Counted from the first letter of the stretch, positions 8,503 to 42,401 are shown. The stretch is DNA of 61,632 nt from a virus (IMGVR_UViG_3300049783_001456:1-61632); one strand, 5' to 3'. Translations and numbers: made by a program. Notes: a model not told the origin generated them from the letters alone.

Positions 8503-9531
8503 GTGACTACGAGAATTACGAAGCTCGACAACTGGACAAGAGGCGGAAGCCCTGGGACGGAACTGAAGTCTTCAGGGCACCGCAGTATCCGAACAGCGCG
8601 AGATGGACGGTTTGGGGCTCACGGGGTCTATCACCGATACTCGACCCCTCAGAAGTTTCAGGCTCCTTTCGTTTGGCGAGGTGAGATCAAGATCAGGGAA
8701 GTTATGGACCCCCCTGTCTTCGAGGACGGAACTCCCGCTTGGTATGATCCAGCGGTTAACTTCGACATGATCTACCCAAGCAACGATCTCAACGTATTCT
8801 GCAACTTCGCTCGTTGGGACGACCATCAGAAGACAAGCTCCTCGGCGGAGATGCGAGACGAGCGCCCGGACAAGCCGTATCAGTACCGCACTGGGGTCGC
8901 CTCCCGCACTAGGGAGCGCCTGCCTTTCGACCCCGTAGACGGTCGATTCCATGACTTCATCGTGGTTGTGCTGAGTACATCTCACTACGCCATGTCGCTC
9001 GACGGATTCACGTTCTTCGAGATACAGGAGAAGCTGCCCGCGACGATCCCACCAGGTCGCTGGCCTGTGGGGTTGCGCCTGGACTTCTGTGATGTTGAGT
9101 TCAGGAACATGACCGTTGAAGAGACCACCGTAACCAACCCACAACCCATCACACCTTTCAGGAGCAACCCGATGACATTGACGCCCATTGAACCCCGACG
9201 CGAAATCGACACGAGAGGAGGTCAGCTCCGCAAGGACGGCACCTTGATCCCCGACGGCGGAGGTCGCTTGCGCAAGGGGATGCCTCGCCGGATAAAGGTT
9301 GTCGCTGGCACCTCAGGCTCGTTTACCGTCTCAGCGTTCTCGGCATCCAGGCCTGGCTACGTGACCGTGTCGTCCGACGGATCCTTCTCCGGGGAAGCGA
9401 ACGCTGTTAGCTTCGCTCCGAACGACGTGCGTGAGAACGGAATGCTGCTCGGTGCACCGGACGGGTGCATCTGGGTCAAGGCCACGCAAGACTGCGACAT
9501 CGCTGTCGACTGCACAGCCGTTGGAAATTAG
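8503..9531 (+). CDS. Hypothetical two-domain protein: beta-sandwich-like N-terminus and an actinobacterial surface-protein-like C-terminus
   Basis: GAGGAGG RBS; C-terminal TPIEPRREIDTR...GYVTV...NAVSF...DIAVD pattern. Confidence 0.55.
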   Translation: MTTRITKLDNWTRGGSPGTELKSSGHRSIRTARDGRFGAHGVYHRYSTPQKFQAPFVWRGEIKIREVMDPPVFEDGTPAWYDPAVNFDMIYPSNDLNVFCNFARWDDHQKTSSSAEMRDERPDKPYQYRTGVASRTRERLPFDPVDGRFHDFIVVVLSTSHYAMSLDGFTFFEIQEKLPATIPPGRWPVGLRLDFCDVEFRNMTVEETTVTNPQPITPFRSNPMTLTPIEPRREIDTRGGQLRKDGTLIPDGGGRLRKGMPRRIKVVAGTSGSFTVSAFSASRPGYVTVSSDGSFSGEANAVSFAPNDVRENGMLLGAPDGCIWVKATQDCDIAVDCTAVGN

Positions 9532-9619
9532 TTCCTGTCTAGGGTAGCTTTCCAGGAACCGTTGCACTATGATGGTTGTTACTGGCCAACGGGGTCGGTA
9601 ACAACCAAGGGAGTAAGAC
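9531..9619 (+). promoter_or_regulatory. Composite promoter-hairpin-RBS element
   Basis: GTTCCTG..GGGTAGCTTTC..CAGGAAC, TATGAT, N7, ACTGGCC-AACGG-GGTCGGT, AAGGGAG. Confidence 0.8.
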
Positions 9620-9928
9620 ATGATAGTCAACCAGTCCGCTGCATACTCGGCAATGACACCAGTACTCGAGCAGATCCGTGAAGACGCTGTCGAAATGAAG
9701 CGGATGCGGGTCAACGTGCGCAACCTCCTCCCTGGCGACATGTTTGTCGGCAGCGGGAAGGTCGTCCGTCAGATGTTTGACCACATCTTCGGCGAAGACC
9801 TTTTCGAGAAAGCCACCCTCCAGCCCGGTCGGGTGCTCGTCCAGTTCGGCCAGGTCACCGGCCTAAGCGTCGTCAACGGCGACGACCTCCACTGCGTCGA
9901 GATCTTCCGCCCCGTGCAAGAATCATGA
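9620..9928 (+). CDS. Hypothetical early protein
   Basis: ATG directly after the element RBS. Confidence 0.7.
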   Translation: MIVNQSAAYSAMTPVLEQIREDAVEMKRMRVNVRNLLPGDMFVGSGKVVRQMFDHIFGEDLFEKATLQPGRVLVQFGQVTGLSVVNGDDLHCVEIFRPVQES

Positions 9929-10092
9929 AGCGCAAGTGCGTGTCGTGCAGTGGTCGGGGTTGGCACCCAGTCCAGTTCTTCACCCCCGAATACGGATATC
10001 AGATACTCGAGGACTCCTGCCTCGACTGCTCCGGAGCGGGAGACCTGGTTTGTGAGGCAGAGGGTTCTATCGAAATGGCGCTGGTCCGATGA
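9925..10092 (+). CDS. Small DnaJ-type zinc-finger-like protein (CxxCxGxG twice)
   Basis: Manual translation MKRKCVSCSGRGW...SCLDCSGAG; ATGA overlap. Confidence 0.55.
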   Translation: MKRKCVSCSGRGWHPVQFFTPEYGYQILEDSCLDCSGAGDLVCEAEGSIEMALVR

Positions 10093-10330
10093 TCCACTCA
10101 CACGTCCTAGACAACGGCACTGAGGTGCTTGTTTCCGAAAGCCTGGGCTGCTGCGAAGAATACTCTCCGGTCGGAGTGCTCTACTTCCGTGGTGGTGTTG
10201 GTAGGTGCACCCAGTGCGCTCTCCGCCTCGGTTGGTTGGACGAACCACTACGGTAACGTCAGCGGTTCCTCCCCCTACTGCTCGGTCATCCCCACACCCT
10301 GAAACACGGAGTGGGGATGATCTCGTTTTC

Positions 10331-10409
10331 AGGGTAGCTTTCTACCAGGAACTAGAGTATGATGATTCGTACCGGCCAACGGGGTCGGCAACTATCAAGG
10401 AGTTCTCCA
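10331..10409 (+). promoter_or_regulatory. Composite promoter-hairpin-RBS element
   Basis: AGGGTAGCTTT, TATGAT, N7, ACCGGCC-AACGG-GGTCGG, AAGGAG. Confidence 0.75.
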
Positions 10410-10643
10410 ATGTTTGGATGTCACAAGTGCGGCACTGTCGGTTCAACTGAAGCGTGTGCAACCCTGGTCCGGCCTGACGGTGTCCCTTACGTGAACACGG
10501 CCTGCGTGCCGGTCAGCTCGTCCGGTGCCGTCTGGGCTCATGAAGATCAGTGGCTTGACACCTTCTTCAATCAGCGCCGTGAGAGCTCTTACTTCGGTGA
10601 GGTTGAGGCTGACTACGTCGGCTGGTGGCCTGCGTCTATTTGA
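10410..10643 (+). CDS. Hypothetical Cys-containing early protein
   Basis: ATG after AAGGAG; MFGCHKCG... Confidence 0.65.
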   Translation: MFGCHKCGTVGSTEACATLVRPDGVPYVNTACVPVSSSGAVWAHEDQWLDTFFNQRRESSYFGEVEADYVGWWPASI

Positions 10644-11540: not shown

Positions 11541-11720
11541 TCAAGACCTCTTGTGCGGGTGGGGTCGGGTGCCAACCCAACAGAGGACTACGTCCCACAG
11601 GACCCTGAGCTTGTTTCTCCCCACGCCGTGGCTGTTGCCGCAGCATGGGGAACTCTGTAGGACCCACCCGTGGGGGAGGCCTCCTGCGGCACCCCAGTCT
11701 TTCCAGTTCATCTTGTTCAT
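11541..11720 (-). CDS. Small hypothetical protein, probably leaderless
   Basis: GGGGTAG...GGGG-TAGGCT-N7-ATG; 59-aa ORF translated by hand. Confidence 0.45.
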   Translation of the reverse strand: MNKMNWKDWGAAGGLPHGWVLQSSPCCGNSHGVGRNKLRVLWDVVLCWVGTRPHPHKRS

Positions 11721-11764
11721 AGCCTACAGCCTACCCCACGCCAACTGAGAAACTACCCCAACCA

Positions 11765-12474: not shown

Positions 12475-12609
12475 CTACTCGGCTTTCTTGAGGGGGATGG
12501 AACGTTCGGATTTCTTAGAGCACCGATGCATGACTTCCTTGACGCCGCTCGGTTGGGTGGTCATGAAACCACAGCCATTGGCGTGGCACTCCCAGAGTAC
12601 TTCGTTCAT
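12475..12609 (-). CDS. 44-aa Cys/His protein, paralogous to the C-terminus of 24236..24580
   Basis: MNEVLWECHANGCGFMTTQPSGVKEVMHRCSKKSERSIPLKKAE; GAGGAG RBS. Confidence 0.6.
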   Translation of the reverse strand: MNEVLWECHANGCGFMTTQPSGVKEVMHRCSKKSERSIPLKKAE

Positions 12610-13718: not shown

Positions 13719-13839
13719 GTTGAGCTCTCTTTCGTTTGAGGTTTGCTACAGCCTACCCCAAGCTGCTGGGAGACACTACCCCAGGTCTGTAACAGCGATC
13801 ATGAAGGCGAAGACGACAGCCAGAGCCACCAGGATCGAC

Positions 13840-14395: not shown

Positions 14396-14470
14396 GGTCC
14401 GTACCCTACTCTACAAAATACTTCCTGGTTGGGGTAGTGTTCCAGGATGTGTTGCGCTATCATGATGTAC

Positions 14471-14701
14471 ATGGCCAACACAAACCTCCTCCTCAACTTC
14501 ACGCTCACCGAAATCCAGGACCTCAAACTCCTCACTCCGCTCTCGGCAGCTGGGCAGATCCTGGTCCGTAACGGCTTCAAGCTGCCAAGCGTCTCTGATG
14601 AATGGCTTCACGCTATGGCTGACACGGCAAACGCTAGCACTGAGTCCTCCGTCAAGGCAGCGCTCGAGGCTATCAAGGCGCATCACCCAGCCTTCAGCTG
14701 A
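14471..14701 (+). CDS. Hypothetical protein, leaderless, driven by a copy of the composite element
   Basis: GGGGTAGTGTTCCAGGA...TATCAT-GATGTAC-ATG. Confidence 0.65.
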   Translation: MANTNLLLNFTLTEIQDLKLLTPLSAAGQILVRNGFKLPSVSDEWLHAMADTANASTESSVKAALEAIKAHHPAFS

Positions 14702-15869
14702 GCGGCATGTAGACAGTCTCGCCTGGCTGGAACACGTGGTCCCATCCACCGTTCCAAGCGTAGAACGTGTCCAGCCTCGAGCGGTCTACCCCGATGCGGT
14801 CCAACGTGGCTAGAGGTCCCTCTCCCGGGAGCACTTGCGTCCGCAGCCCGGATACGCCAGGAGTGAAGATGCGGTGCGGATGGGAAGGCGTCGAGAACGT
14901 CTTGAAGCCTGCCGTGTCGATACGGAGGTTCTTGCTGCCGTCTCCGTATGCGAGCTCAGCCACGCTCCAGGGTGAGTCGCCCGACTCGACGTAGTACATG
15001 ATGTCGCCCACGGCCACGACGTCGAACTCCGGTGTGACTTCGATGGCGGGAGCGGGAGCGTTGAGACCGACGATGTAGTCCATGACTGGCCATGTCTCCT
15101 TGGTACCCACGACGCCATCGCTCGTGATCCCGAAGTAGCGCTGGAGCTCCTGCACTCGCCGCTGGGTCTTGGGGCCGAACCGACCGTCGACAGAGATGTT
15201 GCCGCCGCAGTAGTAGAAGATGACATCTTGCAGGTAGCGGACGTGGTTGGACTCTGCGCCTCTTCGAAGCTCTGCCTTGTTTCCGTCGAGCGGGAACCAC
15301 CACCAATCATGGGGTGGGTTGTATCCGACGTTAGACAGGCCCAGAGGAGCCTGTCTAACGATGCTGGGAGCGCCGTGTCCGATGATGCCTGCTCTCACTT
15401 GGCCGATGACGCCGACACCGCAGCACGACGTGTAGTCGACATCGCCGTGGATGATGACGTCCCAATTCGGTCGAGTCGCAATGAGCTCATTGGCTGCCTT
15501 GACGGCTGCCGGGAAGGCTGGGTCCTGAGCGCCGACCATGATCTGGATCGTCCGCGACTTGTAGTTGAAGTTTCCCGAGACCTTCTTGCCTGGGTTGCTT
15601 GCTGGACGCTGGTCCCAACCACGCACTTCGTACGTCAGGCCGAACTGTGCGATGACCCAGGAGTATCCGTAGGAGTATCCCCGGTTGCGCAGGTAGGACT
15701 CGTGAGCGCTGCGGAGATGAGAGCGGAATTCGATGTCGGTGGACGGTGTGTGCGGAGAGGTAGATCCTGGATAGTGGACCACCCAGGTTCCTCCTGCTGT
15801 GTCGTCGGCTGGACCAGCCACCGGGAACATCGGGTCTTGCCAGAGGGATCTTGATATGACAGAGGGCAT
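14694..15869 (-). CDS. Endolysin: amidase-2, peptidoglycan-binding and LysM-like domains
   Basis: VVHY...GYSWVI...YEVRGW...HGDVDYTSCCG amidase motifs; VDGRFGPKT...LQ...DGVVG PG-binding; YYVESGDSPWSVA LysM; start reassigned to leaderless ATG 15869. Confidence 0.85.
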   Translation of the reverse strand: MPSVISRSLWQDPMFPVAGPADDTAGGTWVVHYPGSTSPHTPSTDIEFRSHLRSAHESYLRNRGYSYGYSWVIAQFGLTYEVRGWDQRPASNPGKKVSGNFNYKSRTIQIMVGAQDPAFPAAVKAANELIATRPNWDVIIHGDVDYTSCCGVGVIGQVRAGIIGHGAPSIVRQAPLGLSNVGYNPPHDWWWFPLDGNKAELRRGAESNHVRYLQDVIFYYCGGNISVDGRFGPKTQRRVQELQRYFGITSDGVVGTKETWPVMDYIVGLNAPAPAIEVTPEFDVVAVGDIMYYVESGDSPWSVAELAYGDGSKNLRIDTAGFKTFSTPSHPHRIFTPGVSGLRTQVLPGEGPLATLDRIGVDRSRLDTFYAWNGGWDHVFQPGETVYMPLS

Positions 15870-16121
15870 GCTATGAACCGTACCCTCGCTCCCTCTGATA
15901 CACGTCTCATTTCCCTCCTCTCTCCCGATAATGTCTGTCGGCTCACCTCGTGTCCTCCATGTGAGCGGCAGCCCATCTCCACCTATCCTGCGTCTCGTGA
16001 CCTCCACACGGCCCGGATACTCCAGCAAGACCCAGGTACACCCTTGCAAACAGCCACCAGGAACACCCGACTTAGCCAGTTTTCCGTACATTTCTACTCA
16101 GTACGCTGGTGTTATACCCCC

Positions 16122-18883: not shown

Positions 18884-18979
18884 TGTGTAGCTACCCTCTG
18901 TAGGTGGAGGTGGCACACTATAGCCCAGCCGATAGTTCTCCACTACCCAAACCAAAATTCTCACGGTACCCTCTACCCC

Positions 18980-19243
18980 ATGCTTGAATCAAAGGTAGAA
19001 TCGATCTTCGCAGACAGGGTCAGGGAGCTAGGTGGTCGGAGTTTCAAGTTCGCTCCGATATTTGCAGGCAACCCGGACCGTATCGTGCTGATGCCAGGGG
19101 GCGTGATCCGCCTGGTCGAGCTGAAGGCCGACGACGGAGCGCTGAGAGCCGTGCAAGTCCTCTGGCACCGTCGAGCTGCCGACCTAGGCACCGATGTTGA
19201 AGTGGTGACTGGCGCCACCGAGGCTAGAGCTTGGATACTGTGA
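18980..19243 (+). CDS. VRR-NUC domain nuclease
   Basis: ESKVE...GNPDRIVL...LVELK...Q; leaderless TACCCT-N7-ATG. Confidence 0.88.
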   Translation: MLESKVESIFADRVRELGGRSFKFAPIFAGNPDRIVLMPGGVIRLVELKADDGALRAVQVLWHRRAADLGTDVEVVTGATEARAWIL

Positions 19244-20741: not shown

Positions 20742-20931
20742 GCCGTTTCGAGCTCAGTACAAGAAAGTTCCTGCTTGGGGTAGGTTTAGCAGGAACTAGA
20801 AGGTAAGATGATTGTGGTGCTGATAGACTGATCGTAGAAATACTTCTTGCTAGGGGTAGCTTTCCAGGATGTGTTGCGGTATCATGATGTACATAGCCAA
20901 CGGGGCTATCACCGAGCAAGGGAGCAAGACC

Positions 20932-21237
20932 ATGGAAGCCAAGATAAATGCGACCGTCTGGGATACCGAGCACACGGGCAGGACCCGCAAAGTCATCGCC
21001 GACGTGCACGAGGCCTTCGAGCTCGACCTCGGAGAATTCCTGATATCGTCTTTCCAAGGGTTCATCACTATCGGAAGGTTCACAGGGCGCACACGCCGGT
21101 TCTGGCACCACGCCTGCCCGACGATCGAGCGTTTCGAGGTAGATACCTTCGCCACCACCGAGGGTGTAATCATGGGACGCAAGGGCATGCGCCTCGCCGG
21201 CACCTTGGCCATCCGCCCTGAAAATACTTCCTGCTAG
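20932..21237 (+). CDS. Hypothetical early cassette protein
   Basis: ATG after the element RBS (the ORF track start lies inside the repeat). Confidence 0.7.
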   Translation: MEAKINATVWDTEHTGRTRKVIADVHEAFELDLGEFLISSFQGFITIGRFTGRTRRFWHHACPTIERFEVDTFATTEGVIMGRKGMRLAGTLAIRPENTSC

Positions 21238-21314
21238 AGGTAGCTTTCCAGGATGTGTTGCGGTATCATGATATACATAGCCAACGGGGCTATCACCTAA
21301 CAAGGAGCAAAGCC

Positions 21315-21476
21315 ATGAAGTTCAAAGTCGGAGATCGCCTCTTCCGTGAATATTCGGTGAAAAATTACGTCTTGATGTCAACCCACGTTGATGCCTACGG
21401 CAGCGTCTCGGTGCTTTCCATGGGTGCGTTTGAAATCGTCCCGCTGGAAGGTCTTCAAGTTCGCCCGGTCCACTGA
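21315..21476 (+). CDS. Small beta-rich protein, paralog of 21877..22056
   Basis: MKFKVGDRLF...STHVDAYGSVSV; ATG after the element. Confidence 0.7.
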   Translation: MKFKVGDRLFREYSVKNYVLMSTHVDAYGSVSVLSMGAFEIVPLEGLQVRPVH

Positions 21477-21579
21477 GAAACATCCTGGAAAGTTGCCTTT
21501 CGGGGTAGCTTTCCAGGATGGGTTGCGCTATCATGATGTACATAGCCAACGGGGCTGTCAACTAGCAAGGAGAAACACC

Positions 21580-21768
21580 ATGAACGAGAAATGCGAATTC
21601 TGCAAGCGGACTCTCACGCCCGACCTGAGCCCGGGATGGTTCTACTACCGGTCCGAGATCGGGGCCACCGAGCCGGTCGAGCACATCGGAGCCACCGAGC
21701 ACGTTGCCTGCCGTAGCTGCCTCGAGGAGAACTTCGGGCACCGCCCAGAGGCCATCCTCGAAGTCTGA
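21580..21768 (+). CDS. Small CxxC...CxxC zinc-binding protein
   Basis: CEFC...CRSC; ATG after the element. Confidence 0.7.
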   Translation: MNEKCEFCKRTLTPDLSPGWFYYRSEIGATEPVEHIGATEHVACRSCLEENFGHRPEAILEV

Positions 21769-21876
21769 TAGAAAGTTCCTGGGAAGTTTGCCCTCTGAGG
21801 TAGCTTTCCAGGAACCTACCGACTATACTCAACTCAGCTGGCCAACGGGGCCAGCCACTAGCAAGGAGAGACCAAC

Positions 21877-22056
21877 ATGGGAACCAACCACGGTGACGAT
21901 CAGATGATCGCCGGGGACAAGTTCTGGCACAACAACTCGATGAAGCCGGTTGAGCTCGCCTCGACTTTCGTCGACACCTACGGACGGGTCGCAGTCATCG
22001 CCGCCAGCGGAGTCTTGCTACTCGTCCACCTCGGAGAGTTGGAGCCGGCATCGTGA
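21877..22056 (+). CDS. Small beta-rich protein, paralog of 21315..21476
   Basis: Manual translation MGTNHGDDQMIAGDKFW...STFVDTYGRVAV. Confidence 0.65.
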   Translation: MGTNHGDDQMIAGDKFWHNNSMKPVELASTFVDTYGRVAVIAASGVLLLVHLGELEPAS

Positions 22057-22424
22057 GGTACCTCTACCGCCTGCTCTCGATCGCTGGGACGTTCAAGGCT
22101 GCCCGGCGAGGCCCAGGTTCCCTCGGACGGAGACAGGGACGTAGGGTAGCGAATCGGCACTTCAACCGCTGGCTGCGGAAGGTGCTGAAGCCGTGAACGT
22201 CTTCTTCGGTATCTGCTCTATCTACTCTGGTGTCTGGTTCTTTACCCAACGCACCCACTGGGTACACGCCTTCATGGGTGTCCTGTTCATCTTGTCGGGA
22301 GCGCTGTTCATCCTGCCGTCGGTAATTTCTTGAATACTTCTTGGTTGGGGTAGCTTTTCAGGAACCAGCCCGCTATCATGATGTACATAGCCAACGGGGC
22401 TATCACCTAGCAAGGAGCCAGACC

Positions 22425-22691
22425 ATGAACGCACCGCAGATCCCCGGCACAACAGAATGCAACACCTGCTACGGCACCACGACAATCGACCAGGGTGGCG
22501 CAGAGATCAACTGCCCGGACTGCCCGGTAGCAGAGAACTTCGAAGTAACGACCGTATGGGAGAACGTCTCCGGTCGCGAGTTCACCCGCACTAAGAGCTA
22601 CCGGGCAGCCTGGGTCGCCGACGCTATGGACCTTGCCCTTGGCGACATGCCCGAGTCCTGCAGCGAAATTGTCGATCAGTACCTGGCCTGA
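22425..22691 (+). CDS. Small zinc-ribbon-containing protein
   Basis: CNTCYG...CPDC; ATG after the element. Confidence 0.7.
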   Translation: MNAPQIPGTTECNTCYGTTTIDQGGAEINCPDCPVAENFEVTTVWENVSGREFTRTKSYRAAWVADAMDLALGDMPESCSEIVDQYLA

Positions 22692-22794
22692 GGAAGTTTC
22701 AAAATACTTCTTGGTTGGGGTAGCTTTCCAGGAACCAGCCCGCTATCATGATGTACATAGCCAACGGGGCTATCACCTACCAAGGAGAACAGCC

Positions 22795-22935
22795 ATGACG
22801 AAGAAGCCAGCAATTGACCCCAAGAACCCACTGACCTGGGAGCGCAGCCTTCACGGCAAGAGCACTTGCCCCACCTGCGGTGGCAAGGGCATGCGCCATA
22901 TCCCGGGCTGGGTTGCACGCCACGTCAACCACTGA
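22795..22935 (+). CDS. Small C2H2-like protein
   Basis: CPTC...H..H; ATG after the element. Confidence 0.65.
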   Translation: MTKKPAIDPKNPLTWERSLHGKSTCPTCGGKGMRHIPGWVARHVNH

Positions 22936-23232: not shown

Positions 23233-23352
23233 GCTCGGAACCCCAACCGGGAAGTTTCAAAATACTTCTTGGTTGGGGTAGCTTTCCCGCACCGGTTGAG
23301 CTATCATGATGTACATAGCCAACGGGGCTATCACCTAACAGGGAGAACCGCA

Positions 23353-23532
23353 ATGAACGCAACAGACATCCTTATCGAAAACTTCGGATATGGAAAAGAC
23401 CTCTCGACGGTCACCCTCGCCGAGATCGAAGACGCCTTCACTTCCGCAGGGTACAGCGAGGAAGACGCCCAAGAAGAAGCGGCCATGCAGGACGGGCGAA
23501 TCCTCCCCCGCAAGATCCGGATCCACCGATGA
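23353..23532 (+). CDS. Small acidic protein
   Basis: ATG after the element. Confidence 0.65.
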   Translation: MNATDILIENFGYGKDLSTVTLAEIEDAFTSAGYSEEDAQEEAAMQDGRILPRKIRIHR

Positions 23533-24580: not shown

Positions 24581-24673
24581 AGAAACTTCCTGATTGGGGT
24601 AGCTTTCCAGCTACCGGTCCGCTATCATGATGTACATAGCCAACGGGGCTATCAACTAGCAAGGAGCAACACA

Positions 24674-24913
24674 ATGAACGCAGATGATATTCGCCGCACC
24701 ATCCAAATCATTACTCAAGACTCTCTGATAGATTCTGCAAGCTGCCAGGTTCCAACAGCCTGCAACCTGGCAGAAGCAGGCGCCAGCCGTCGGCAGCTTG
24801 ACAACGCCATCCAGAAGCTGGGTCTCGACGACACCCAGTGGTCCAAGATGTTTCGCCAGGTGTTTGACAACGCAATAAAGGCAGCAGCAGCCCACGCAGG
24901 TGATGACCAATGA
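24674..24913 (+). CDS. Hypothetical protein
   Basis: ATG after the element. Confidence 0.65.
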   Translation: MNADDIRRTIQIITQDSLIDSASCQVPTACNLAEAGASRRQLDNAIQKLGLDDTQWSKMFRQVFDNAIKAAAAHAGDDQ

Positions 24914-25403: not shown

Positions 25404-25638
25404 GCCGGAGCGCAGCCAGTCAAGCAGCAGCAAGGTATGCGAACCTCAAGCGTGTTCGCCGCAACAAGATGAACATCTGCGAAGTCTGCCTCCTCTGGGT
25501 CTACACCGACCAGAAGAGCACTTGGATGATCCTGCGAGGGGACGCCATCCGAATCCACGAAGAATGTCGCCCGGTCTCCTAGAGGCTGGGGTATGCTCTA
25601 CCAGAGGCCAACAAGGCCCACGAACAGAAGGGAAAAGA

Positions 25639-26094
25639 ATGAGCACTTTCAGTGTTGAAGATAGCTTCGGACGGAGCACCAATTTCAAAGGTTCTCTCTT
25701 GGCCGACGAGACAACCGACAACGATAACGAGCGGAAGCCACAGTGGTCCGACGTCGAAGTCTGGGTTACAGAAGCCGGAAACTTCGTCGTCCGCCGGACC
25801 AGCAATTACCGGATACGCCACAACCATGTTGGTTGCACCCGTGCCGAGGGGTTCACCTTGATCGAAGCAGACGAATCAGACACCTACCTCTGCCCAACAT
25901 GTGGAGCCGACGGTAACAGTCTGCACGCCCAGGAAGCTAGAGTGTCAGTTCAGCACTACTTGGACCTGAAGAGTTTCGTAGAGAGCTTCCAGCAGGACGG
26001 TCGGTACAGCCAATTCGCAAGGACGGTTCTCTCCAACATTTCCGACCAGAACGACGCTGTGAACAACTTCTGGAACACGGTCCACGTCGAATGA
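25639..26094 (+). CDS. Hypothetical protein with a Zn-ribbon insert
   Basis: Preceded by TATGCT-N7-AGGCC-AACAA-GGCC and AAGGGA; H..GC...CPTC. Confidence 0.65.
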   Translation: MSTFSVEDSFGRSTNFKGSLLADETTDNDNERKPQWSDVEVWVTEAGNFVVRRTSNYRIRHNHVGCTRAEGFTLIEADESDTYLCPTCGADGNSLHAQEARVSVQHYLDLKSFVESFQQDGRYSQFARTVLSNISDQNDAVNNFWNTVHVE

Positions 26095-26273: not shown

Positions 26274-26340
26274 GTCAATCTCGTGGGGTAGGCTCCACAT
26301 CAAGCGCCAACGAGGCGCACCAAATCGAACAGGAGAAAGT

Positions 26341-27516
26341 ATGACTCTCACACCCAATGAAGACCAGCAACAAGCGCTCGAATCGATACACGACTGGTTC
26401 GGCTCGAACACGGACAAGCCGTTCGTACTTGGGGGACTAGCAGGCACAGGCAAGACCGCACTGCTACCGATGCTCCACCAGAGCTTCTCTAAGACGCCTC
26501 GAATCCGCTACGTCTGCCCGACGTGGAAGGCAGCTCACGTACTGACCAAGAAGCTCAATGCGGCTGGTGTCGGGGCTTCAGCAACCTCTATCCACAACTT
26601 GATCTACAACCCAAAGGGAATCCTCCACGACGAGGATTGCGGTATCTGGGACAACCCTGAAGACGGCTGCACCATATCGCCTCCTTGCCGCCAGCTGTGC
26701 TGGGAGTACGACCCCAAGGACCGTCCCGAGCTCCTCATCGTAGACGAAGCCTCGATGGTGGACCCTCGCCAACGTGAAGACATCGCTCGTTTAGGCAGCC
26801 CGACCCTCTACGTCGGCGACCACGGCCAGCTCCCACCGGTACAAGGCAACTCAGTCTTCGACGAACGGAAGCCTGACGCCTTGCTGGAGCGCATTCAACG
26901 GCAAGCCTTGGACAGCCCGATCATCCCACTCAGCCGCATCATCCGGTCGGGTGACTCAAAGTGGTTGCGGCAAGCAGAGGCACTTGGGTTCAAGGTTCTT
27001 GATTCTGGTTCCAAGAGCACCGATAGGTATGACCCGAAGGCAGCGTTGCCACCTCACAGCGACCCGCAGACTGTCTTCATCGCAGCTACCAACTTCGGCG
27101 TCGACAAGTTGAACGCTCTCGTTCGCCGGGTGCTCGAACGAGGCCCAGGCAACCTTGTTCCTGGCGAGCTGGTTATGGCCCAGAACAACAACCGCAAGAC
27201 CGGCATCTACAACGGTCAGCAAGGCGTCATCAAAGACGTCAAGAAGTACGGCAACCAGGTGTCGATCGACTTGGTGATGGAGACCGGTATCCGGTACACA
27301 GGACCTGTCCTCCTCAAAGGTGTGGACGACATTCCGCAACATACTGACACGCCAGTCATTCGGCACAGCTACGCAGTGACTTGCCACAAGGCACAGGGCA
27401 GCGAGTTCAAGAACGTCGTAGTGTACTTGGCCAACTCCCGACCTGAGACCACACGGTGGCTCTACACCGCAGTCACCAGGGCCACGACCAACCTGACTTT
27501 CGTCCGGGCATTCTGA
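26341..27516 (+). CDS. SF1B (Dda/RecD-like) DNA helicase
   Basis: GLAGTGKT, IVDEASMV, VGDHGQLPPV, YAVTCHKAQGSE, WLYTAVTRA. Confidence 0.92.
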   Translation: MTLTPNEDQQQALESIHDWFGSNTDKPFVLGGLAGTGKTALLPMLHQSFSKTPRIRYVCPTWKAAHVLTKKLNAAGVGASATSIHNLIYNPKGILHDEDCGIWDNPEDGCTISPPCRQLCWEYDPKDRPELLIVDEASMVDPRQREDIARLGSPTLYVGDHGQLPPVQGNSVFDERKPDALLERIQRQALDSPIIPLSRIIRSGDSKWLRQAEALGFKVLDSGSKSTDRYDPKAALPPHSDPQTVFIAATNFGVDKLNALVRRVLERGPGNLVPGELVMAQNNNRKTGIYNGQQGVIKDVKKYGNQVSIDLVMETGIRYTGPVLLKGVDDIPQHTDTPVIRHSYAVTCHKAQGSEFKNVVVYLANSRPETTRWLYTAVTRATTNLTFVRAF

Positions 27517-29583: not shown

Positions 29584-30231
29584 ATGAAAGTGACTGAGCC
29601 AGGACCACCGAGGCGGATCTACGGGTTCACCCCGTGGGGGAGACCGATATTCGAGGACCCAACAGCAGAACCCAAGGAGCCCAGGATGATCGGACGACAC
29701 CCGTTCCAACCATCGCAGGAGTACCCGATGATATGTGGCGTCTGCAACAAAACGATGGCGCGGCACACCTACGACGAATCTCAGGAGCCGACTCGCCCGA
29801 CCGTAGATACGAGGCCTGACACCGGCACAGGTGACCCAATCCCCTGGATCCGCCACCGACCGACAGTCGATGAGTATTACCTCGGGATCGCCCGAGCAGT
29901 AGCAGCTCGAGCTGAGTGCAGTCGTAGGCAGGTTGGCGCTGTCATCGTCCGGGACCAGTCCATCATGTCTACAGGTTTCAACGGTGCGCCTCCAGGAGAG
30001 CCGAGCTGTCTAGACGGCGCATGCCCAAGGGCACTCAGCGGTGTAGCACCTGGCACTGGATACGCTTCTAGCGGCTGCGTGGCTGTGCACGCTGAAGCCA
30101 ACGCCATCATCCGTGCAGGACGCGAGAGGTGCCTTGGAGCGACGCTCTACGTCACCTCCGAGTGCTGCGACCTGTGCGCCCCGTTGGTGCGTGCTGCTGG
30201 GATAACTAGGGTGGTGACACCTTTGGGGTAG
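29584..30231 (+). CDS. dCMP deaminase with an N-terminal extension
   Basis: CSRRQVGAVI, GFNGAP, HAEANAI, CCDLC. Confidence 0.9.
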   Translation: MKVTEPGPPRRIYGFTPWGRPIFEDPTAEPKEPRMIGRHPFQPSQEYPMICGVCNKTMARHTYDESQEPTRPTVDTRPDTGTGDPIPWIRHRPTVDEYYLGIARAVAARAECSRRQVGAVIVRDQSIMSTGFNGAPPGEPSCLDGACPRALSGVAPGTGYASSGCVAVHAEANAIIRAGRERCLGATLYVTSECCDLCAPLVRAAGITRVVTPLG

Positions 30232-30309
30232 CGTAATCGAATTCTTTGGGGTACTATGAGTTTCCGAAACAACGTACACACGTAAACCAGAACCAACAGG
30301 AGAAACAAA

Positions 30310-30744
30310 ATGCAGATCACGATCGACACCAACAACCTCTCGGAGATGGACATCAACATGCTGTCCTTCCTCGCCGACCAGGGTGAGGTGCAGAACAATG
30401 TCGAACCCGATGAGGAAGAGCTCGAGCTCGAGATTGACGAAGACGACACTGTCGACCGAGCAGATGAAGCTGCAGCCGCCAAGAAGGAAGCAGCCGCTGC
30501 CAAGAAGGCTGCTGCCGCCAAGAAGGAAGCTGCCAAGAAGGCTGAAGAAGCGACCGAGGAAGAAGCGACCGACGACGATGCACCGACCATGTCGGATGCA
30601 GTTGCTGCCGCCACGAAGCTCGTGTCAAGCGGGCAGGCTGCCCTGGTCAAGACAGCACTAGCCAAAGTCGAAGTGAAGCGAGTTAGCGAGATGGACGTTG
30701 CGGACATTCCGACGTTCCTCGCAGCTCTCGAAGAAGGTGAATGA
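30310..30744 (+). CDS. Acidic, Ala/Lys-rich protein of the PolA-Cas4-SSB module
   Basis: AGGAG RBS; directly upstream of the DUF2800-like gene. Confidence 0.7.
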   Translation: MQITIDTNNLSEMDINMLSFLADQGEVQNNVEPDEEELELEIDEDDTVDRADEAAAAKKEAAAAKKAAAAKKEAAKKAEEATEEEATDDDAPTMSDAVAAATKLVSSGQAALVKTALAKVEVKRVSEMDVADIPTFLAALEEGE

Positions 30745-33357: not shown

Positions 33358-33450
33358 AAATACTTCCTGGTTGGGGTAGCTTTCCAGCAACCCACCCGCT
33401 ATCATGATGTACATAGCCAACGGGGCTATCACCTACCAAGGAGAACCGCA
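33358..33450 (+). promoter_or_regulatory. Composite promoter-hairpin-RBS element
   Basis: Near-consensus copy. Confidence 0.85.
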
Positions 33451-33831
33451 ATGACGAACACCTACCGCACACACGGAAGCCTCACCGGCGATGTTAACGA
33501 CTTCGAAACGGCGAGAGACTACCTCCGTGAAAGCGACATGACGCAGTACGTCAAGCATGCTTCCTTCAAGGGTCTCGAGGACATCGTCCACAACATCCAG
33601 TGGAACCTTCTGGGGGTAGACACCTGGGAAGTCATCGTCATTACCAACCGGGAGCTGACGGCAGAAGAATCCACCGGGGTCAGCGAGTGGATCTCCGGCC
33701 AGAACAGCGACGGCTTGGGTGAGGGGTTCGAGCAGCAAGAGTTCGCCGAGCACGAGGACCTCGACGGGGAATACTCGATGAGCTCGTTCGACTGGCACAC
33801 CAACAAAGCCATCTTGACCCTCGTCAAGTAA
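33451..33831 (+). CDS. Hypothetical protein with a WISGQNSDGLGEGFEQ motif
   Basis: Cassette inserted before PolA; ATG after the element. Confidence 0.7.
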   Translation: MTNTYRTHGSLTGDVNDFETARDYLRESDMTQYVKHASFKGLEDIVHNIQWNLLGVDTWEVIVITNRELTAEESTGVSEWISGQNSDGLGEGFEQQEFAEHEDLDGEYSMSSFDWHTNKAILTLVK

Positions 33832-35720: not shown

Positions 35721-35781
35721 TTATCGAGAAACATCCTGGTTGGGGTAGTTTTGCAGGATGTGGTGGGGTATACTCATAACT

Positions 35782-35976
35782 ATGAGCTTCCCCACACGCA
35801 CCTACTCCACTAACGGCCACACGGTCGAAATCACCAAGACCGCTTGTGAAGCAGTACCGAGCCAGGCCAGCTACAAGGTCAAGGTCGACGGCCAATTCGC
35901 CGGTCAGCCTGGAACCTTGAAGCGTGCCAAGGAATTCGCAGCCCTGAAGATCCGCATGATCGAAGCAGCCGCATGA
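35782..35976 (+). CDS. Hypothetical protein, leaderless
   Basis: ACATCCTG..GGGGTAG..CAGGATGT, then TATACT-N7-ATG. Confidence 0.65.
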   Translation: MSFPTRTYSTNGHTVEITKTACEAVPSQASYKVKVDGQFAGQPGTLKRAKEFAALKIRMIEAAA

Positions 35977-39096: not shown

Positions 39097-39272
39097 TCGA
39101 GTTCGAAGCCCAGTTCAAGAGCGACTGTGGCAACTGCGAGTTCCCGGTAGAGAAAGGTCAAGCTGCAACCTTTGAGGACAACGAAGCTGTACACATCAAG
39201 TGCCCCAAGGTTCGCCCAGCGTGCCCTGATTGCTGGCTGGTGCACGGCACGGCTCAGGAGTTCTGCGAATGA
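39093..39272 (+). CDS. Small Cys-rich zinc-binding protein
   Basis: CGNC...HIKC...CPDC...H; GTGA and ATGA overlaps on both sides. Confidence 0.55.
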   Translation: MIEFEAQFKSDCGNCEFPVEKGQAATFEDNEAVHIKCPKVRPACPDCWLVHGTAQEFCE

Positions 39273-40162
39273 GGACTGATGACTTCCTCGACTTCGTCGT
39301 CGAGCGCCACCGCATCTGGGAACAGAGGCAGGCAGGCACTGCCCAACCTTGGACCGAAGACCCTGTGCTCGCCAACCGCAAGTTCACCAACGTCTTCCGG
39401 GTGCTCGATCCAGGCACTCAGTTCCTCTTGAAGGACCTCTTTGAGCCCGACCTCAACCCTCGGGACACCTTGATGCGAGCGTTCCTCTACCGGCATACAG
39501 GCAAGGTAGAGACGTGGGAGCTGCTGGACCTCATGGTCGGCGAATATCCGACAGTCCCGATGCTCGAAGACGTCCGTAAGATCTGGCATGGGTACCGGGA
39601 CACGAAGGCACCGTTCTTCACGAATGCGTACCTCGTCTATCCGCAATCTTCCACACCCGGTACAGACAAGCTCGACTCGATCGTCGACTTGACAAAGCGG
39701 CTGTTCACTCCTGGTTCGCCAGACGACATCATGCCGGAATGGCTCTCTGCTCAGACCCAGAAGGAGCGGTTCAAGATCCTTCGCCGCAACAAGGGCGTCG
39801 GCGACTTCATGTCAATGCAGATACTGACTGACTGGGGCTACCAATGTGGCGAAGATCGGGAAGACGAATTCCTCGTGCCTGGCCCTGGCTCTATCAAGGG
39901 AGCGAAGGCTCTCGACCCCGACGCCAAGACCATGGAAGTGGTGCGGCGTGTCGTGAAAGAAGTTCGTGGGGTAGCTTCTTCACCTCGGTTGGGGTACCGT
40001 TCACCAAGTCTCATGGACATCGGCTCTAATCTCCTCTGCGAGTGGAGCAAGTACGTGAGGTTCAGAGGGCAATCGTTGCCCAAGACCAACTACATCCCGG
40101 CTCACCCAGGTCCGCAACCGGACCCAGTGCTGCCGAGCTATTACACAGAGGAACTGATATGA
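39269..40162 (+). CDS. 5-hmdU DNA kinase helical domain (aGPT-Pplase1 family)
   Basis: FLDFVVERHRIW...PWTEDPVLANRKFTNVFRVLD; GVGDFMSMQILTD; GPGSIKG; LCEWSKY. Confidence 0.82.
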   Translation: MRTDDFLDFVVERHRIWEQRQAGTAQPWTEDPVLANRKFTNVFRVLDPGTQFLLKDLFEPDLNPRDTLMRAFLYRHTGKVETWELLDLMVGEYPTVPMLEDVRKIWHGYRDTKAPFFTNAYLVYPQSSTPGTDKLDSIVDLTKRLFTPGSPDDIMPEWLSAQTQKERFKILRRNKGVGDFMSMQILTDWGYQCGEDREDEFLVPGPGSIKGAKALDPDAKTMEVVRRVVKEVRGVASSPRLGYRSPSLMDIGSNLLCEWSKYVRFRGQSLPKTNYIPAHPGPQPDPVLPSYYTEELI

Positions 40163-40410
40163 ACAAAGCGCAAGAGCTGGACCTGCTTATGGTAGACCCA
40201 CCGCCAGGGTCGCACCTCAAGATGAAATTGGTGTACCCAGGCAGCCCGAAGTCCTATGTCTACGTGGCCATCTCTCTAGGCACTCTTTGGTACCTCAGCG
40301 GTATCAGCGGGTCATTCCCGTCTTGGGCTTCCCTGGTTAACTGGATGCAAAACAAGAACGCCGAAGTAATTTCAATCCAAACCGCAACGTCCTGGGAGGA
40401 CCTACTGTAA
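40159..40410 (+). CDS. Hypothetical protein
   Basis: GAGGA RBS; ATGA overlap. Confidence 0.55.
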   Translation: MNKAQELDLLMVDPPPGSHLKMKLVYPGSPKSYVYVAISLGTLWYLSGISGSFPSWASLVNWMQNKNAEVISIQTATSWEDLL

Positions 40411-41822
40411 TGAACCACAACTACCAATTCAACAACGTCAACGACGCATTGCCTCGACTTATGGAGGCTCTGCTGGGAGACGGTGCGGAGTTCCCTTCTC
40501 GTGCCGGCAACACCAAAGAGTTGATGCACGTCGGTATCACCCTCCGGAAGCCTTGGCAGCGGGAGATCGCACTGCCTGGTCGCAAAGCCAACATCGCTGC
40601 GCAGATCATGGAGACCATGTGGGTGTTGTCGGGTCGCAACGACGTCGCAGGTCTCAGCCATTACCTGCCTCGAGCCATCGACTTCAGTGACGATGGCTTG
40701 GAGTGGCGGGCAGGCTACGGTCCTCGCCTGCGAAACTTCCACGGTGTTGACCAGCTTGCCTACCTCGTTGACACGATCGCTGACTCGCCTGGTTCACGGC
40801 AAGCGGTAGCGTCCATTTGGGACCCGACCGTCGACACTGAGCCCGGCAAAGACATCGCCTGCAACAACTGGATCTCGCTCAGTGCCAGGGACGGCAAGCT
40901 GGACGTTCACGTAGGTCTCCGCTCAAACGACGCCATGTGGGGTTGGAGCGGTATCAACGCTTTCGAATGGTCGGTACTACAGGAAGTAGTGGCACACATC
41001 GCAGGCCTGGAAATCGGATCACTCCACTTCTCCACAACCAGCTTCCACTTGTATGAGCAACACTGGGATAAGGCAAGTTCCCTCTCCAAGCTCAACGGCA
41101 ACTTCATGTACGGTGACTCCCCAAGGTTCAACCTGAGTGGGTACAACGTGCTGAGCCGTTTCGACGAGCTTGCCCAGGAGTGGTTCGCACTCGAAGAAGA
41201 CATCCGCTTCGGCCGGGAGATCGGCAACGCTGTCAACGACTTCCCCGAGCCGATGTTGCGGTCGTGGTTGCGGGTTCTTCAGTGGTACTGGTCAGGCGAG
41301 AGCATCTACCTGCAGCCTCTCCGACGATCAAACCTTTACCACGCTTGCCTGGAAGGTGTCAAGCCTGCCGGCAAGCACCAGGAAGAGCAGCTCGAGATCG
41401 TAGAACCCTACGACCGCATCGACGGTGAGTTCCTCGACTTCGTCAACCGACTGCACACCCAGAAGCACCTGGCATACGGTGACAGCTGGAAGCGTCGAGG
41501 CGAGTATATGATCCTCGCTAACATCGCCCGCAAGGTCGACCGCATCGAGAGCGGCAAGGACACTCCGGACGAGACCCAGGCCGACACCGCACAAGACCTG
41601 ATGGTCTACCTCGCCAAATACAAGTCTTGGCTCAGCGGTGGAGAAGGCAACCCAGACGAGGTCCGCCTCATCCTCCGGGGACAAGAGAGCCTCTACTTCT
41701 CTACGGTAGATATCGTGAGCTTGTTCGATAACCTAGAGAACGCTCACGGACCAGCCTTCAAGATGAGCGTGGTGGACAAACTACTGAGCCAAGCCTACAC
41801 CTTCGCCCTGTCGTTGTGGTGA
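40410..41822 (+). CDS. Thymidylate synthase-family enzyme (probable dUMP hydroxymethylase) fused to a nucleotide-modification-associated helical domain
   Basis: YGPRLR, SRQAV, catalytic DIACNN, RSNDAMWG..INA with Asn (uracil specificity), SFHLY; C-terminal KHLAYGDSWK...ARKVDRI...DTAQDLMVY. Confidence 0.82.
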   Translation: MNHNYQFNNVNDALPRLMEALLGDGAEFPSRAGNTKELMHVGITLRKPWQREIALPGRKANIAAQIMETMWVLSGRNDVAGLSHYLPRAIDFSDDGLEWRAGYGPRLRNFHGVDQLAYLVDTIADSPGSRQAVASIWDPTVDTEPGKDIACNNWISLSARDGKLDVHVGLRSNDAMWGWSGINAFEWSVLQEVVAHIAGLEIGSLHFSTTSFHLYEQHWDKASSLSKLNGNFMYGDSPRFNLSGYNVLSRFDELAQEWFALEEDIRFGREIGNAVNDFPEPMLRSWLRVLQWYWSGESIYLQPLRRSNLYHACLEGVKPAGKHQEEQLEIVEPYDRIDGEFLDFVNRLHTQKHLAYGDSWKRRGEYMILANIARKVDRIESGKDTPDETQADTAQDLMVYLAKYKSWLSGGEGNPDEVRLILRGQESLYFSTVDIVSLFDNLENAHGPAFKMSVVDKLLSQAYTFALSLW

Positions 41823-42331
41823 CCCGCTCCATCTACATCATCGGTGCGCCAGGCTCCGGCAAGTCGACGGCCATGGCCCAACTCCTCGAGGGTTGGGCCA
41901 TGGGTCCGTACACTCGTTGGCAGCGGGAGATCTATGGACACTATCTCGAGCACCCCGAGAGAGGACGAGGAGCGTACCTCGGTCACCTTCGCCCCGAGTT
42001 CCCCGGAACGGACGCTCTCTCCCTCTCAGCAGGTCCTCGAGCGGTTGAATGGCTCGACGCTCTCCCACTCCTTGGGCTTGATTGGGTTCTGGCCGAAGGT
42101 GCTCGCCTCGCTCACATGGGTTTCCTACTTGCTCTCAACGAAGCCACAGACCTGACAGTCGTGTATTTGGATGTGGACCCAGAGGTTGCTGCCCAGAGGC
42201 GAATCGACCGGGGTGGGAAACAGCTTTCTGAAAAGTTCTGCAAGACGATGACCACTAAGTCGGCCAACATCTACAAGGGTTGCAAGGAAGCAGGCATAAC
42301 TATCGTGAAGGATGTTCCTGCCTTGAGGTAG
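41816..42331 (+). CDS. P-loop nucleotide kinase (5hmU kinase-associated)
   Basis: IYIIGAPGSGKST, FPGTDALS, EGARL, RRIDRG. Confidence 0.8.
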   Translation: MVTRSIYIIGAPGSGKSTAMAQLLEGWAMGPYTRWQREIYGHYLEHPERGRGAYLGHLRPEFPGTDALSLSAGPRAVEWLDALPLLGLDWVLAEGARLAHMGFLLALNEATDLTVVYLDVDPEVAAQRRIDRGGKQLSEKFCKTMTTKSANIYKGCKEAGITIVKDVPALR

Positions 42332-42401
42332 CTTTCCAGGAACAGTTGGGGTAGTATGATTGTCACTGGCCACAAGGGCTAGCATCTACCAAGGAGCAAC
42401 C
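42314..42401 (+). promoter_or_regulatory. Divergent copy of the composite element
   Basis: GTTCCTG..GAGGTAGCTTTC..CAGGAAC, TAGTAT, N7, ACTGGCC-ACAAG-GGCTAG, AAGGAG. Confidence 0.7.

Follow-up and report, generated by a model that had tools for sequence, protein, structure and literature searches.

A repeated family of putative promoter and leader cassettes in an uncultured actinophage, with the PeSL elements of T4-like phages as the closest analogue

Introduction

In our comparison, the repeated sequence reported here finds its closest analogue in the promoter-early stem-loop (PeSL) cassettes of T4-like phages (Arbiol et al. 2010, PMC2839356; Comeau et al. 2014, PMC4122927). Repeated intergenic motifs have also often been noted in actinophage genomes, and the portions of the reports used here leave their function open (PMC3203893, PMC7302621). 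They comprise the start-associated sequences (SAS) and extended start-associated sequences (ESAS) of cluster K mycobacteriophages and cluster EF Microbacterium phages (PMC3203893, PMC7302621) as well as the 18-bp asymmetric motifs, 18-bp inverted repeats and 30-bp repeats of Microbacterium phage clusters EC, EG and EI, respectively (PMC7302621). The element that we describe, of roughly 90 bp, recurs 15 times in a complete virus record of IMG/VR (IMGVR_UViG_3300049783_001456; 61,632 bp, analysed whole and called the window below), which, judged by its genes, is the ~61.6 kb genome of an uncultured actinophage of the myovirus type.

We conclude that this element is a real and well-defined family of regulatory cassettes that forms a modular start of transcription and translation. 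Its sequence makes a promoter followed by a leader the likely reading, and the explanation that we consider probable for the whole is that of a standard expression head, assembled from separable modules, whose copies recombine with one another. The repeats, their fixed spacing, the covariation of the hairpin, the concerted evolution of the copies and the differences in cargo were computed here, and it is from them that we infer that the element is active as a promoter, where its transcripts start, what its hairpins do and that its copies recombine.

Results

A profile built with nhmmer from the 12 full copies and scanned against the window recovered all 15 copies listed in the original prediction, 12 of them full (88-93 nt, n=12; E values from 5e-27 to 5e-18) and three truncated, every one on the + strand (Table 1). 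The truncated copies are the three that had been said to lack the hairpin and the ribosome-binding site (RBS). The claimed order of the parts, a box followed by TAnnnT, 7 nt, a hairpin, AAGGAG and ATG, was also borne out, with CAAGGAG behind the hairpin in the 12 full copies. With up to two mismatches allowed, a 17-mer core gave 13 forward and no reverse matches, its reversed control giving none on either strand, and GGGGTAGCTTT gave 35 matches against 9.7 expected; the gapped signature GGTAG-N20-TAnnnT was found 19 times against 0.38 expected, a count that 0 of 100 shuffles reached; these controls rule chance out. As had been noticed, the element often begins right at the stop codon of the preceding gene: at the 12 of 16 box promoters (the 15 copies and one at 30225) that have a called upstream + strand gene, gene end and box are separated by -7 to 42 nt. 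A subfamily comprises eight window copies, 77-94% identical, in which exact common blocks extend over 18-52 bp. The rule of one to three small genes per copy held for 11 of 15 but not for c33373, which also heads the DNA polymerase gene, c35742, which heads an 11-gene operon, c24596, with at least four genes, and c20777, with none.

The only columns invariant in 15 of 15 copies are GGTAG..TT, which constitutes the box, and TA...T, 16 nt further downstream. Their spacing is kept where the spacer sequence is unrelated (at 30225, at 35742 and, on the - strand, at 13780 and 18947) and also in c10331, whose right inverted-repeat arm is displaced by 3 nt; because it stays fixed in such unrelated contexts, the pair behaves as a two-part promoter would. 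The signature is strand-specific and is oriented towards genes on both strands. At five sites (14471, 35782, 11720 on the - strand, 15869 on the - strand and 18980) the ATG that opens the best gene candidate stands exactly 7 nt past the hexamer, and in 12 copies the hairpin begins at ~7 nt. According to the part of the Corynebacterium glutamicum study used here, TAnnnT lies 3-11 nt upstream of 97% of 2,591 mapped starts in that organism, whose -35 is weak and which makes 33% of its mRNAs leaderless (PMC3890552). It is on these data, and on the common phasing of leaderless ATGs and hairpins, that we read the hexamer as a -10 and place +1 7 nt on; promoter activity with a start at this point is what we infer from the sequence, and the truncated copies with an ATG exactly 7 nt past the -10 suggest leaderless mRNAs. 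With C. glutamicum as the yardstick, the sequence carries the hallmarks of actinobacterial primary-sigma promoters, namely the invariant TA...T and the ATG 7 nt downstream at five sites. A short A-rich tract lies upstream in the element, and the -10 has the TAnnnT form but the -35 position reads GGGGTAGCTTT. Sigma-70 consensus promoters were not enriched (4 sites against 5.0 expected, and 2 against 5.8), and neither were U-tailed terminators. A likeness of the -10 GGGTAY to SigB/SigF-type promoters was set aside, as eight copies use TATCAT.

The hairpin that follows was aligned in 17 examples (12 distinct sequences) taken from the window and three relatives. Four of its seven pairs are changed on both sides among the 12 distinct sequences, and covariation scores 0.355, compared with 0.158 for shuffles, none of 500 of which reaches 0.355; when the partner columns were slid as a control, the score was at most 0.10 and the signal was lost. 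In several copies, G-U pairs fit the sense RNA only, being mismatches on the other strand. These compensatory changes and sense-only wobbles are the reason for taking the 5′ hairpin as an RNA structure. A hairpin at +1 is a classic arrangement for protecting the 5′ end. The loop is AACGG (variants ACAAG, AACAA and AACGA) and the two C-G pairs that close it do not vary, a constancy which suggests that the loop is also recognised by some factor. Rfam covariance models gave no match anywhere in the window.

The modules also occur apart. Signature promoters without the hairpin stand at 30225(+), 39968(+, inside a gene), 13780(-), 18947(-) and 11758(-), and the hairpin with its RBS follows a box-less GGGGTAnnnT -10 at 25589 and 26286. 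The similarity of c14431 to the other copies reaches the hairpin loop, with ATA changed to ATG at +1, that of c35742 reaches the -10, and the break points of the modules cluster at the start site. The orphan copy c20777 is read as the scar of a cargo loss; 76 bp separate its box (20777) from that of c20853 (20853) downstream.

Composite patterns of the element were found in one IMG/VR contig (L065, also recorded as L062), in two metagenome contigs of ~1 kb (L063 and L064) and in no genome contig. L065 has 65-83% nucleotide identity to the window over 39281-47995. In IMG/VR, a 15-mer core gave 53 single matches, which is the chance level, and three other patterns gave none, none, and chance matches besides the known contig only. 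A search with the polymerase returned many uncultured relatives at 64-81% identity, among them P0004, P0007 and P0012 (78-81% identical, on contigs of 65.3, 62.6 and 64.3 kb), and the relatives followed by an alignment-based scan have polymerases 69% (L153), 64% (L178), 59% (L173), 54% (L154) and 51% (L159) identical. The order of the modules is common to L065, L063, L064, L153 (GC 68%) and L159. At least five copies lie in L153, in a version of its own (box GGGGTAGCG, -10 GGGGTACGCT, hairpin GGGCC-ACAGG-GGCCC, AAGGAG, ATG), and one full copy in L159; L178 keeps the -10, hairpin and RBS without a strict box, and the box is absent from the complete genomes behind L173 and L154.

Copies group by genome and not by position, paralogues being 82-94% identical against 37-51% for copies at the same position. 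Indeed, c33373 is 94% identical to c22717, 10.6 kb away, against 50-51% and 39% to the elements at the same junction, between the genes for the single-stranded DNA-binding protein (SSB) and the polymerase, in L064 and L153 (L153_E4), respectively, and L153_E2 is 82% identical to L153_E4 at a distance of 6.8 kb. The copies are homogenised within genomes, a pattern of concerted evolution such as gene conversion or exchange between copies would leave. The process is incomplete, c42325 and its positional partner in L065 still having private features in common.

The inverted repeat that the original prediction placed upstream stood up in part: a strong fold was found in 3 of 15 copies (21502, z -8.1; 21797, z -5.0; 24596, z -3.2) but not in the other 12, and 10331 and 23275 lack the repeat. 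Each of the two long forms has an 18-bp stem with the box for its 3′ arm; AAAGUUGCC pairs with GGUAGCUUU in it via two wobbles, and because of these two wobble pairs the long stems fit the sense RNA. At 24596 and 10331 the box pairs with downstream sequence instead, and in L153, whose copies fold strongly too, it is one arm of a 7-14 bp palindrome between box and -10. What recurs is a stem-loop that includes the box, at a varying position (upstream of the box, or between box and -10), the remaining window copies being weak.

That the cassettes are gained, lost or shuffled had also been proposed. At three conserved junctions, different cargo was found in four to six genomes, in relatives so distant (polymerase 51-81% identical) that single turnover events are not resolvable. 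Where L153 has an HNH gene, one element and a DUF2786 gene, the same interval of the window (19231-23529) holds WhiB, three genes, and eight elements with 13 genes. The SSB/polymerase junction carries an 82-aa gene, the element and a 126-aa gene in the window; a terminator, the element and a 126-aa homologue in L064, where the 82-aa gene of the window is missing; the element, 98-aa and 62-aa genes and a dCMP deaminase in L153; a promoter with hairpin and an unrelated 149-aa gene in L178; nothing in L173; and 2.4 kb of other genes in L154. Only the 126-aa gene of the window and L064 is therefore common, the other four of six genomes having unrelated cargo or none. At the kinase/HTH (helix-turn-helix) junction, cargo differs in all four genomes examined (the window, L065, L153 and L178). 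Within the window, paralogous cargo genes occur (g39/g41 and g19/g50/g71), plus the one orphan copy. Of the original interpretation, the promoter and 5′ untranslated head, the stop-adjacent position, the differing cargo and the homogenised copies, such as recombination would produce, thus found support, but the contigs of four runs revealed no junction made by recombination. Among the points in favour of recombining cassettes is that the genome has genes for a gp2.5-like annealing protein and for an exonuclease. On this sequence evidence, a recombination role of the element is supported indirectly.

Several observations touch the cargo and the variable sites. Small proteins encoded at 12475-12609(-), 24236-24580(+) and 35973-36161(+) have a ~40-aa domain in common (43-46% identity), two of the three lying in element-headed cassettes, and searches of the small cargo genes against PHROGs, Pfam and the ESM Atlas gave no function match. 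Loose contig ends at 22702 and 22802 were rejected as junctions, as they come from cross-mapping of the paralogue c33373. One contig of run X10 skips 69 bases in frame (12774-12842) within gene 12606-13163 of the - strand; only 35 letters lie on the shorter side of this joint. In L065, a 204-aa HNH-type endonuclease gene at ~975-1590, absent from the window, is inserted precisely where the stop codon of the kinase overlaps the start of the following gene; it resembles a free-standing homing endonuclease. At 43852-45211, two - strand virion genes (131 and 316 aa) are without L065 counterpart and the next gene is only partly alike, a difference that probably reflects receptor-binding variation.

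Table 1. Copies of the element and separately occurring modules in the window. The profile start is that of the nhmmer match, with the E value for truncated copies; SD, Shine-Dalgarno site.
Feature	Coordinates	Strand	Profile start	Sequence features	Genes
c9541	9530..9622	+	9530	full: box AGGGTAGCTTT, 7-bp inverted repeat, TATGAT, hairpin, SD, ATG 9620; upstream stop 9529-9531 at 5′ edge	3 small genes (102, 55, 37-55 aa)
c10331	10321..10412	+	10321	full, without left arm; box pairs with downstream CTACC	one 77-aa gene
c14431	14420..14473	+	14420 (1.5e-12)	truncated; similarity stops inside former hairpin (GCCAAC); ATG exactly 7 nt past TATCAT, leaderless candidate	one-gene + island amid - strand genes
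c20777	20766..20811	+	20766 (0.16)	orphan: box, perfect 8-bp inverted repeat (TTCCTGC/GCAGGAA), TAAGAT; without hairpin and RBS	none
c20853	20842..20934	+	20842	full, member of 8-copy subfamily	one ~101-aa gene
c21237	21226..21317	+	21226	full; upstream gene ends within element	53-aa gene, paralogue of c21797-headed 59-aa gene
c21502	21481..21582	+	21492	full; box is 3′ arm of 18-bp hairpin (-31 kcal/mol, z -8.1, G-U wobbles)	62-aa gene
c21797	21775..21877	+	21787	full; long hairpin (-24.8 kcal/mol, z -5.0), TATACT, 5′ hairpin GCUGGCC/GGCCAGC	3 genes (59, 47, 46 aa)
c22347	22336..22427	+	22336	full	88-aa CxxC protein
c22717	22706..22797	+	22706	full	2 genes (46, 67 aa)
c23275	23264..23355	+	23264	full, right arm lost	59-aa gene, DUF2786 protein (236 aa), 114-aa gene
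c24596	24585..24676	+	24585	full; box pairs with downstream AGCTACC (7-bp stem, z -3.2)	at least 4 small genes
c33373	33362..33453	+	33362	full, between SSB and DNA polymerase genes	126-aa gene and polymerase
c35742	35731..35784	+	35731 (5e-5)	truncated, directly after polymerase stop: 8-bp inverted repeat, GGGGTATACT, 7 nt, ATG 35782 (leaderless candidate)	operon 35758-42331, including thymidine-hypermodification genes
c42325	42315..42404	+	42315	full; kinase stop TAG is TAG of box; -10 GGGGTAGTAT	DUF6011 protein, Xre-like HTH protein, 136-aa gene
Box promoter	30225..30312	+		GGGGTAGCGTA-N16-TACTAT, without inverted repeat or hairpin	144-aa gene, exonuclease, nucleotidase, SSB (operon 30310-32994)
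Box-less -10	25588..25641	+		GGGGTATGCT, then hairpin GGCC-AACAA-GGCC, SD, ATG 25639	
Box-less -10	26285..26343	+		GGGGTAGGCT, then hairpin GCGCC-AACGA-GGCGC, SD, ATG 26341	Dda-like helicase
Box and -10 pair	39968..40000	+		box and GGGGTACCGT; both motifs kept in L065, spacer differs; may, weakly, be an internal promoter	inside 5-hydroxymethyldeoxyuridine DNA kinase gene
Signature promoter	18917..18949	-		GGTAG-N20-TATAGT	upstream of - strand primase operon
Signature promoter	13750..13782	-		GGGGTAGTGT-N12-GGGGTAGGCT	upstream of - strand gene 13437-13718
Signature promoter	11718..11759	-		GGGGTAGTTT and GGGGTAGGCT (22-nt offset), 7 nt, ATG 11720; leaderless candidate	open reading frame 11541-11720
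Box-less -10	15867..15886	-		GGGTACGGT, 7 nt, ATG 15869; leaderless candidate	endolysin gene
Box-less -10	18961..18982	+		GGTACCCT, 7 nt, ATG 18980	HNH gene, then WhiB; operon upstream of array

The genome encodes a tail sheath, a tape measure, a capsid, a terminase and an endolysin with a peptidoglycan-binding domain, together with a primase, two helicases, a gp2.5-like SSB, an exonuclease, a family A polymerase and a WhiB-family regulator. Because this set includes tail sheath, capsid, terminase, WhiB and endolysin, we assign the genome to a tailed phage of an actinobacterium. The same strain is present in many runs labelled ice metagenome. Searches of the array and of one element against cultured phages by megablast and blastn gave no match; the best protein matches in cultured phages were 51% for the capsid (Gordonia phage GMA4) and 50% for the polymerase (Glutamicibacter phage Montesquieu).

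An apparent set of thymidine-hypermodification genes lies at 29686-30231 and 36468-42331: a dCMP deaminase, an amino acid:DNA transferase (PF18724), a protein like enzymes dependent on pyridoxal phosphate, the 5-hydroxymethyldeoxyuridine DNA kinase (PF18723), a thymidylate-synthase-like protein of 470 aa that has a long extension at its C terminus, and a P-loop nucleotide kinase (PF18751). The hypermodification operon, free of elements, is syntenic in L153, L178 and L173. Candidate regulators are a GerE/LuxR-type HTH protein of 84 aa (13840-14094, - strand), a 145-aa member of the WhiB family that ends in a long C-terminal tail (19231-19668, + strand) and an Xre-like HTH protein of 131 aa (42991-43386, + strand) kept in L065, L153 and L178. 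In the 360-bp gap between primase and endolysin genes, a 33-nt inverted repeat (88% complementary) surrounds a 33-nt AT-rich loop (16122-16220) and could be an origin or a packaging site. A long GC-rich hairpin at 43793-43852, between the convergent early (+) and structural (-) blocks, is retained in L065 (6276-6443) with compensatory changes and is probably a two-way terminator. A tRNA search and an Rfam scan of the whole window at gathering thresholds found no match. Between the SSB gene and the 82-aa gene there is a tRNA-like fragment at 33031-33090 (T-arm and acceptor end, GGTTCGAGTCC...CCCACCCA), which ARAGORN does not call and which, scored over 33031-33083, falls below Rfam thresholds; L064 has a canonical terminator in its place.

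Discussion

How does this element compare with described systems? The likeness to PeSLs that had been suggested fits in layout, location and association with variable genes. In the sections of the PeSL report that bear on this comparison (PMC2839356), as here, repeats of ~100 bp run from an upstream stop through a promoter, a stem-loop of variable position and an SD site to a start codon and are concentrated before small genes of unknown function; some flank replication genes, the polymerase being bordered on both sides, here by c33373 and c35742; relatives differ by the genes contiguous to the repeats; and what is an array in one genome is a lone element in another. The stem-loop of PeSLs is a stable one that acts as terminator or attenuator; folds of the present element are strong in 3 of 15 window copies and in those of L153, and weak in the remaining window copies. 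The differences are that host phylum and phage lineage are other ones here, that the PeSL promoter follows the host sigma-70 consensus with AT-rich sequence upstream whereas the box is not a host consensus -35 (PMC2839356), and that an extra covarying 5′-terminal RNA hairpin with a conserved loop and predicted leaderless variants are found in the present element. Moreover, the function of PeSLs is, in the passages used, defined by promoter and terminator assays and by mini-circles, whereas that of the element is predicted from sequence. Given its other lineage, a -35 position unlike the host consensus and the experimental definition of PeSLs, we regard the PeSL family as the closest analogue of the element but do not count the element as a member of it. 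Literature searches found no paper in the library covered that links PeSLs with Actinobacteria, and by sequence motif they gave primer matches only.

The second analogy that had been drawn, to SAS, proved weak. Like the element, SAS and ESAS are, as far as the cited portions describe them, short asymmetric repeats of one orientation that immediately precede ATG starts within the non-structural half of the actinophage genome; an inverted repeat often accompanies them on the upstream side, the host genome has none of them, and the genes beside them belong to different families. However, the SAS motif (GGGATAGGAGCCC) spans 13 bp, lies at the RBS itself, 3-7 bp ahead of the start codon, and is absent here: its consensus gave one match in the window, with 2 mismatches and not at a gene start, against 1.33 expected. 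In the same account, the 17-bp imperfect inverted repeats of ESAS have arms without RNA-pairing support, in contrast to the hairpin of the element, which covaries and has wobble pairs (PMC3203893), and the parts available describe SAS without a -10 or box promoter part and without a fixed start-site phasing. The EC, EG and EI motifs resemble the element in that each genome has 5-12 of them, located 14-30 bp ahead of starts in intergenic gaps that are short, in being conserved among cluster members despite diverged flanks, and in that the available description leaves their function unknown (PMC7302621). Their sequences are different and far shorter, and those parts of the report describe no combination of promoter, hairpin and RBS for them.

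Further likenesses come from general knowledge of phage promoters. At the middle promoters of T4, a phage-specific MotA box replaces the host -35 and is combined with a sigma-70 -10, and the actinophage phiC31 has repeated early promoters next to conserved inverted repeats. These systems have in common with the element the many copies and a phage-specific upstream box joined to a host-type -10, and differ from it in that no MotA or AsiA homologue was seen in the window and no repressor or integrase is evident there.

How might such a head work? The explanation that we favour starts with read-through RNA from the upstream gene, on which the variable stem-loop overlapping the box would act as attenuator or terminator. 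The promoter would consist of the phage-specific box GGGGTAGC(TTT), placed roughly between -39 and -29, and of an actinobacterial TAnnnT -10, exactly 16 nt downstream, with transcription expected to start 7 nt past the latter. The RNA hairpin at or near +1, with its conserved top CC-AACGG-GG, would most likely protect the 5′ end and may bind a regulator, and a strong SD site and an ATG would complete the head. Because the ~90-bp heads have exact blocks of 18-52 bp in common, copies may recombine or convert one another; such recombination would homogenise the heads within a genome and make their junctions sites where small early genes are gained, lost or swapped.

Several results weigh against this explanation. 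On the promoter side, none of the runs found to contain the phage sequence is an RNA run, the box is unlike the weak actinobacterial -35 (ttgnca), and the box and -10 pattern gave 6 matches, against 33 for a reversed control, in 201 genomes of the class of a Rhodoluna metagenome-assembled genome. A 17-base box pattern likewise gave 59 matches in genomes, the chance level, the three actinobacterial ones being single copies. Since the box is neither like the host -35 nor enriched in the 201 genomes, host RNA polymerase alone may not read it. On the side of the stem-loop, 12 of 15 upstream inverted repeats fold no better than shuffles (z +0.2 to -1.9), and the inverted repeat is absent from L064 and L065b. 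As for recombination, the deletions or circles between copies that the original prediction led one to look for did not appear in the contigs of four runs, which carry the same strain in the same order, break at the repeats and are uninformative for rare variants; of the four indels that separate L065 from the window, two (the insertion of an HNH endonuclease gene and the replacement of a tail gene) are unrelated to elements; within-genome similarity could partly reflect selection for one optimal sequence; and small accessory genes are variable in any phage and often have their own promoter, so that co-location with an element is not causation.

Could the box, whether or not its palindrome is present, be mainly a DNA site for a phage regulator, instead of a -35 read by sigma? 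MotA, an activator, redirects host RNA polymerase at T4 middle promoters. Stoperators of cluster A mycobacteriophages provide, in the excerpt used, a model of the repressor type (PMC3203893). This alternative is possible, though we hold it doubtful. It would account for a box that is phage-specific and not enriched in actinobacterial genomes, and for the ~23 conserved nt upstream of the -10, and it gains from the box-less leaderless -10 promoter of the HNH/WhiB operon upstream of the array, from the GerE-like 84-aa HTH protein also encoded, and from the fact that the window and box-bearing G204 both encode WhiB and the Xre-like HTH protein, which the complete box-less genomes G206 and G207 lack. 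This sample is tiny, however, as G208 has one box copy and neither protein and G205 has the HTH protein but no strict box, and the co-occurrence is a lead from very few genomes, not a finding. Besides, the wobble-paired long hairpins point to RNA and not to a symmetric DNA site, and a fixed 16-nt spacing fits a promoter element better than a freely placed operator.

It is rather unlikely, in our judgement, that the element is nothing but a family of strong promoters and leaders, with ordinary mosaicism behind the turnover and recent duplication plus selection behind the likeness of the copies. The element-unrelated indels of L065 and the contigs of the four runs, in which no junction reads were found, speak for it, as does the presence of elements at most early-region intergenic sites, which puts any indel there near one. 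But copies at the same junction are only 37-51% alike against 82-94% for distant paralogues, silent positions that functional selection does not require (spacer, discriminator and stem base) are homogenised too, and the array of the window is matched in L153 by just one element.

An improbable alternative takes the box itself (GGGG-TAGCTT, of the TAnnnT form) for a second -10, which would make two tandem promoters 23 bp apart. Many true -10 sites of the phage and its relatives do read GGGGTAnnnT, among them the box-less ones before the hairpin leaders at 25589 and 26286; nevertheless, the box is far more constrained (GGTAGCTT) than -10 sites (TAnnnT), its distance to the -10 is fixed even in unrelated contexts, and hairpins and leaderless ATGs are phased to the downstream hexamer only. 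Finally, that the element is no promoter at all but a signal for RNA processing or termination, or else a small mobile element of the non-autonomous kind, as the strong hairpins at 21502 and 21797 and the repeated, homogenised copies might suggest, is highly improbable in view of the lack of terminal inverted repeats and target duplications, the orientation of all copies with the genes they precede, the invariant TAnnnT with leaderless ATGs at +1 and the lack of an Rfam family match.

The recombining expression head may be taken one step further, to a proposal that we consider speculative and unlikely as it stands: a phage protein (the 145-aa WhiB-like, the Xre-like HTH or the GerE-like HTH protein), made from the box-less upstream operon or a nearby gene, would re-aim the primary-sigma polymerase of the host to GGGGTAGC promoters, and a second phage factor, which sets the timing of translation or decay, would dock at the invariant hairpin loop. 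If so, the cassette would work as an orthogonal expression system complete in itself, carried between phages that differ in GC content together with whichever gene it has picked up.

What does the element add to our view of actinophages? It is unusually legible, since box, -10, start point, covarying hairpin and RBS can each be read from the sequence, and its truncated copies reveal where the modules come apart. The idea behind PeSLs, of regulatory cassettes that double as recombination sites, would thereby be extended from T4-like phages of Gram-negative hosts to a clade of uncultured actinophages. If it is true that the box needs a phage factor, the element would point to a redirection of polymerase in actinophages and would provide compact orthogonal promoter and leader parts for actinobacteria.

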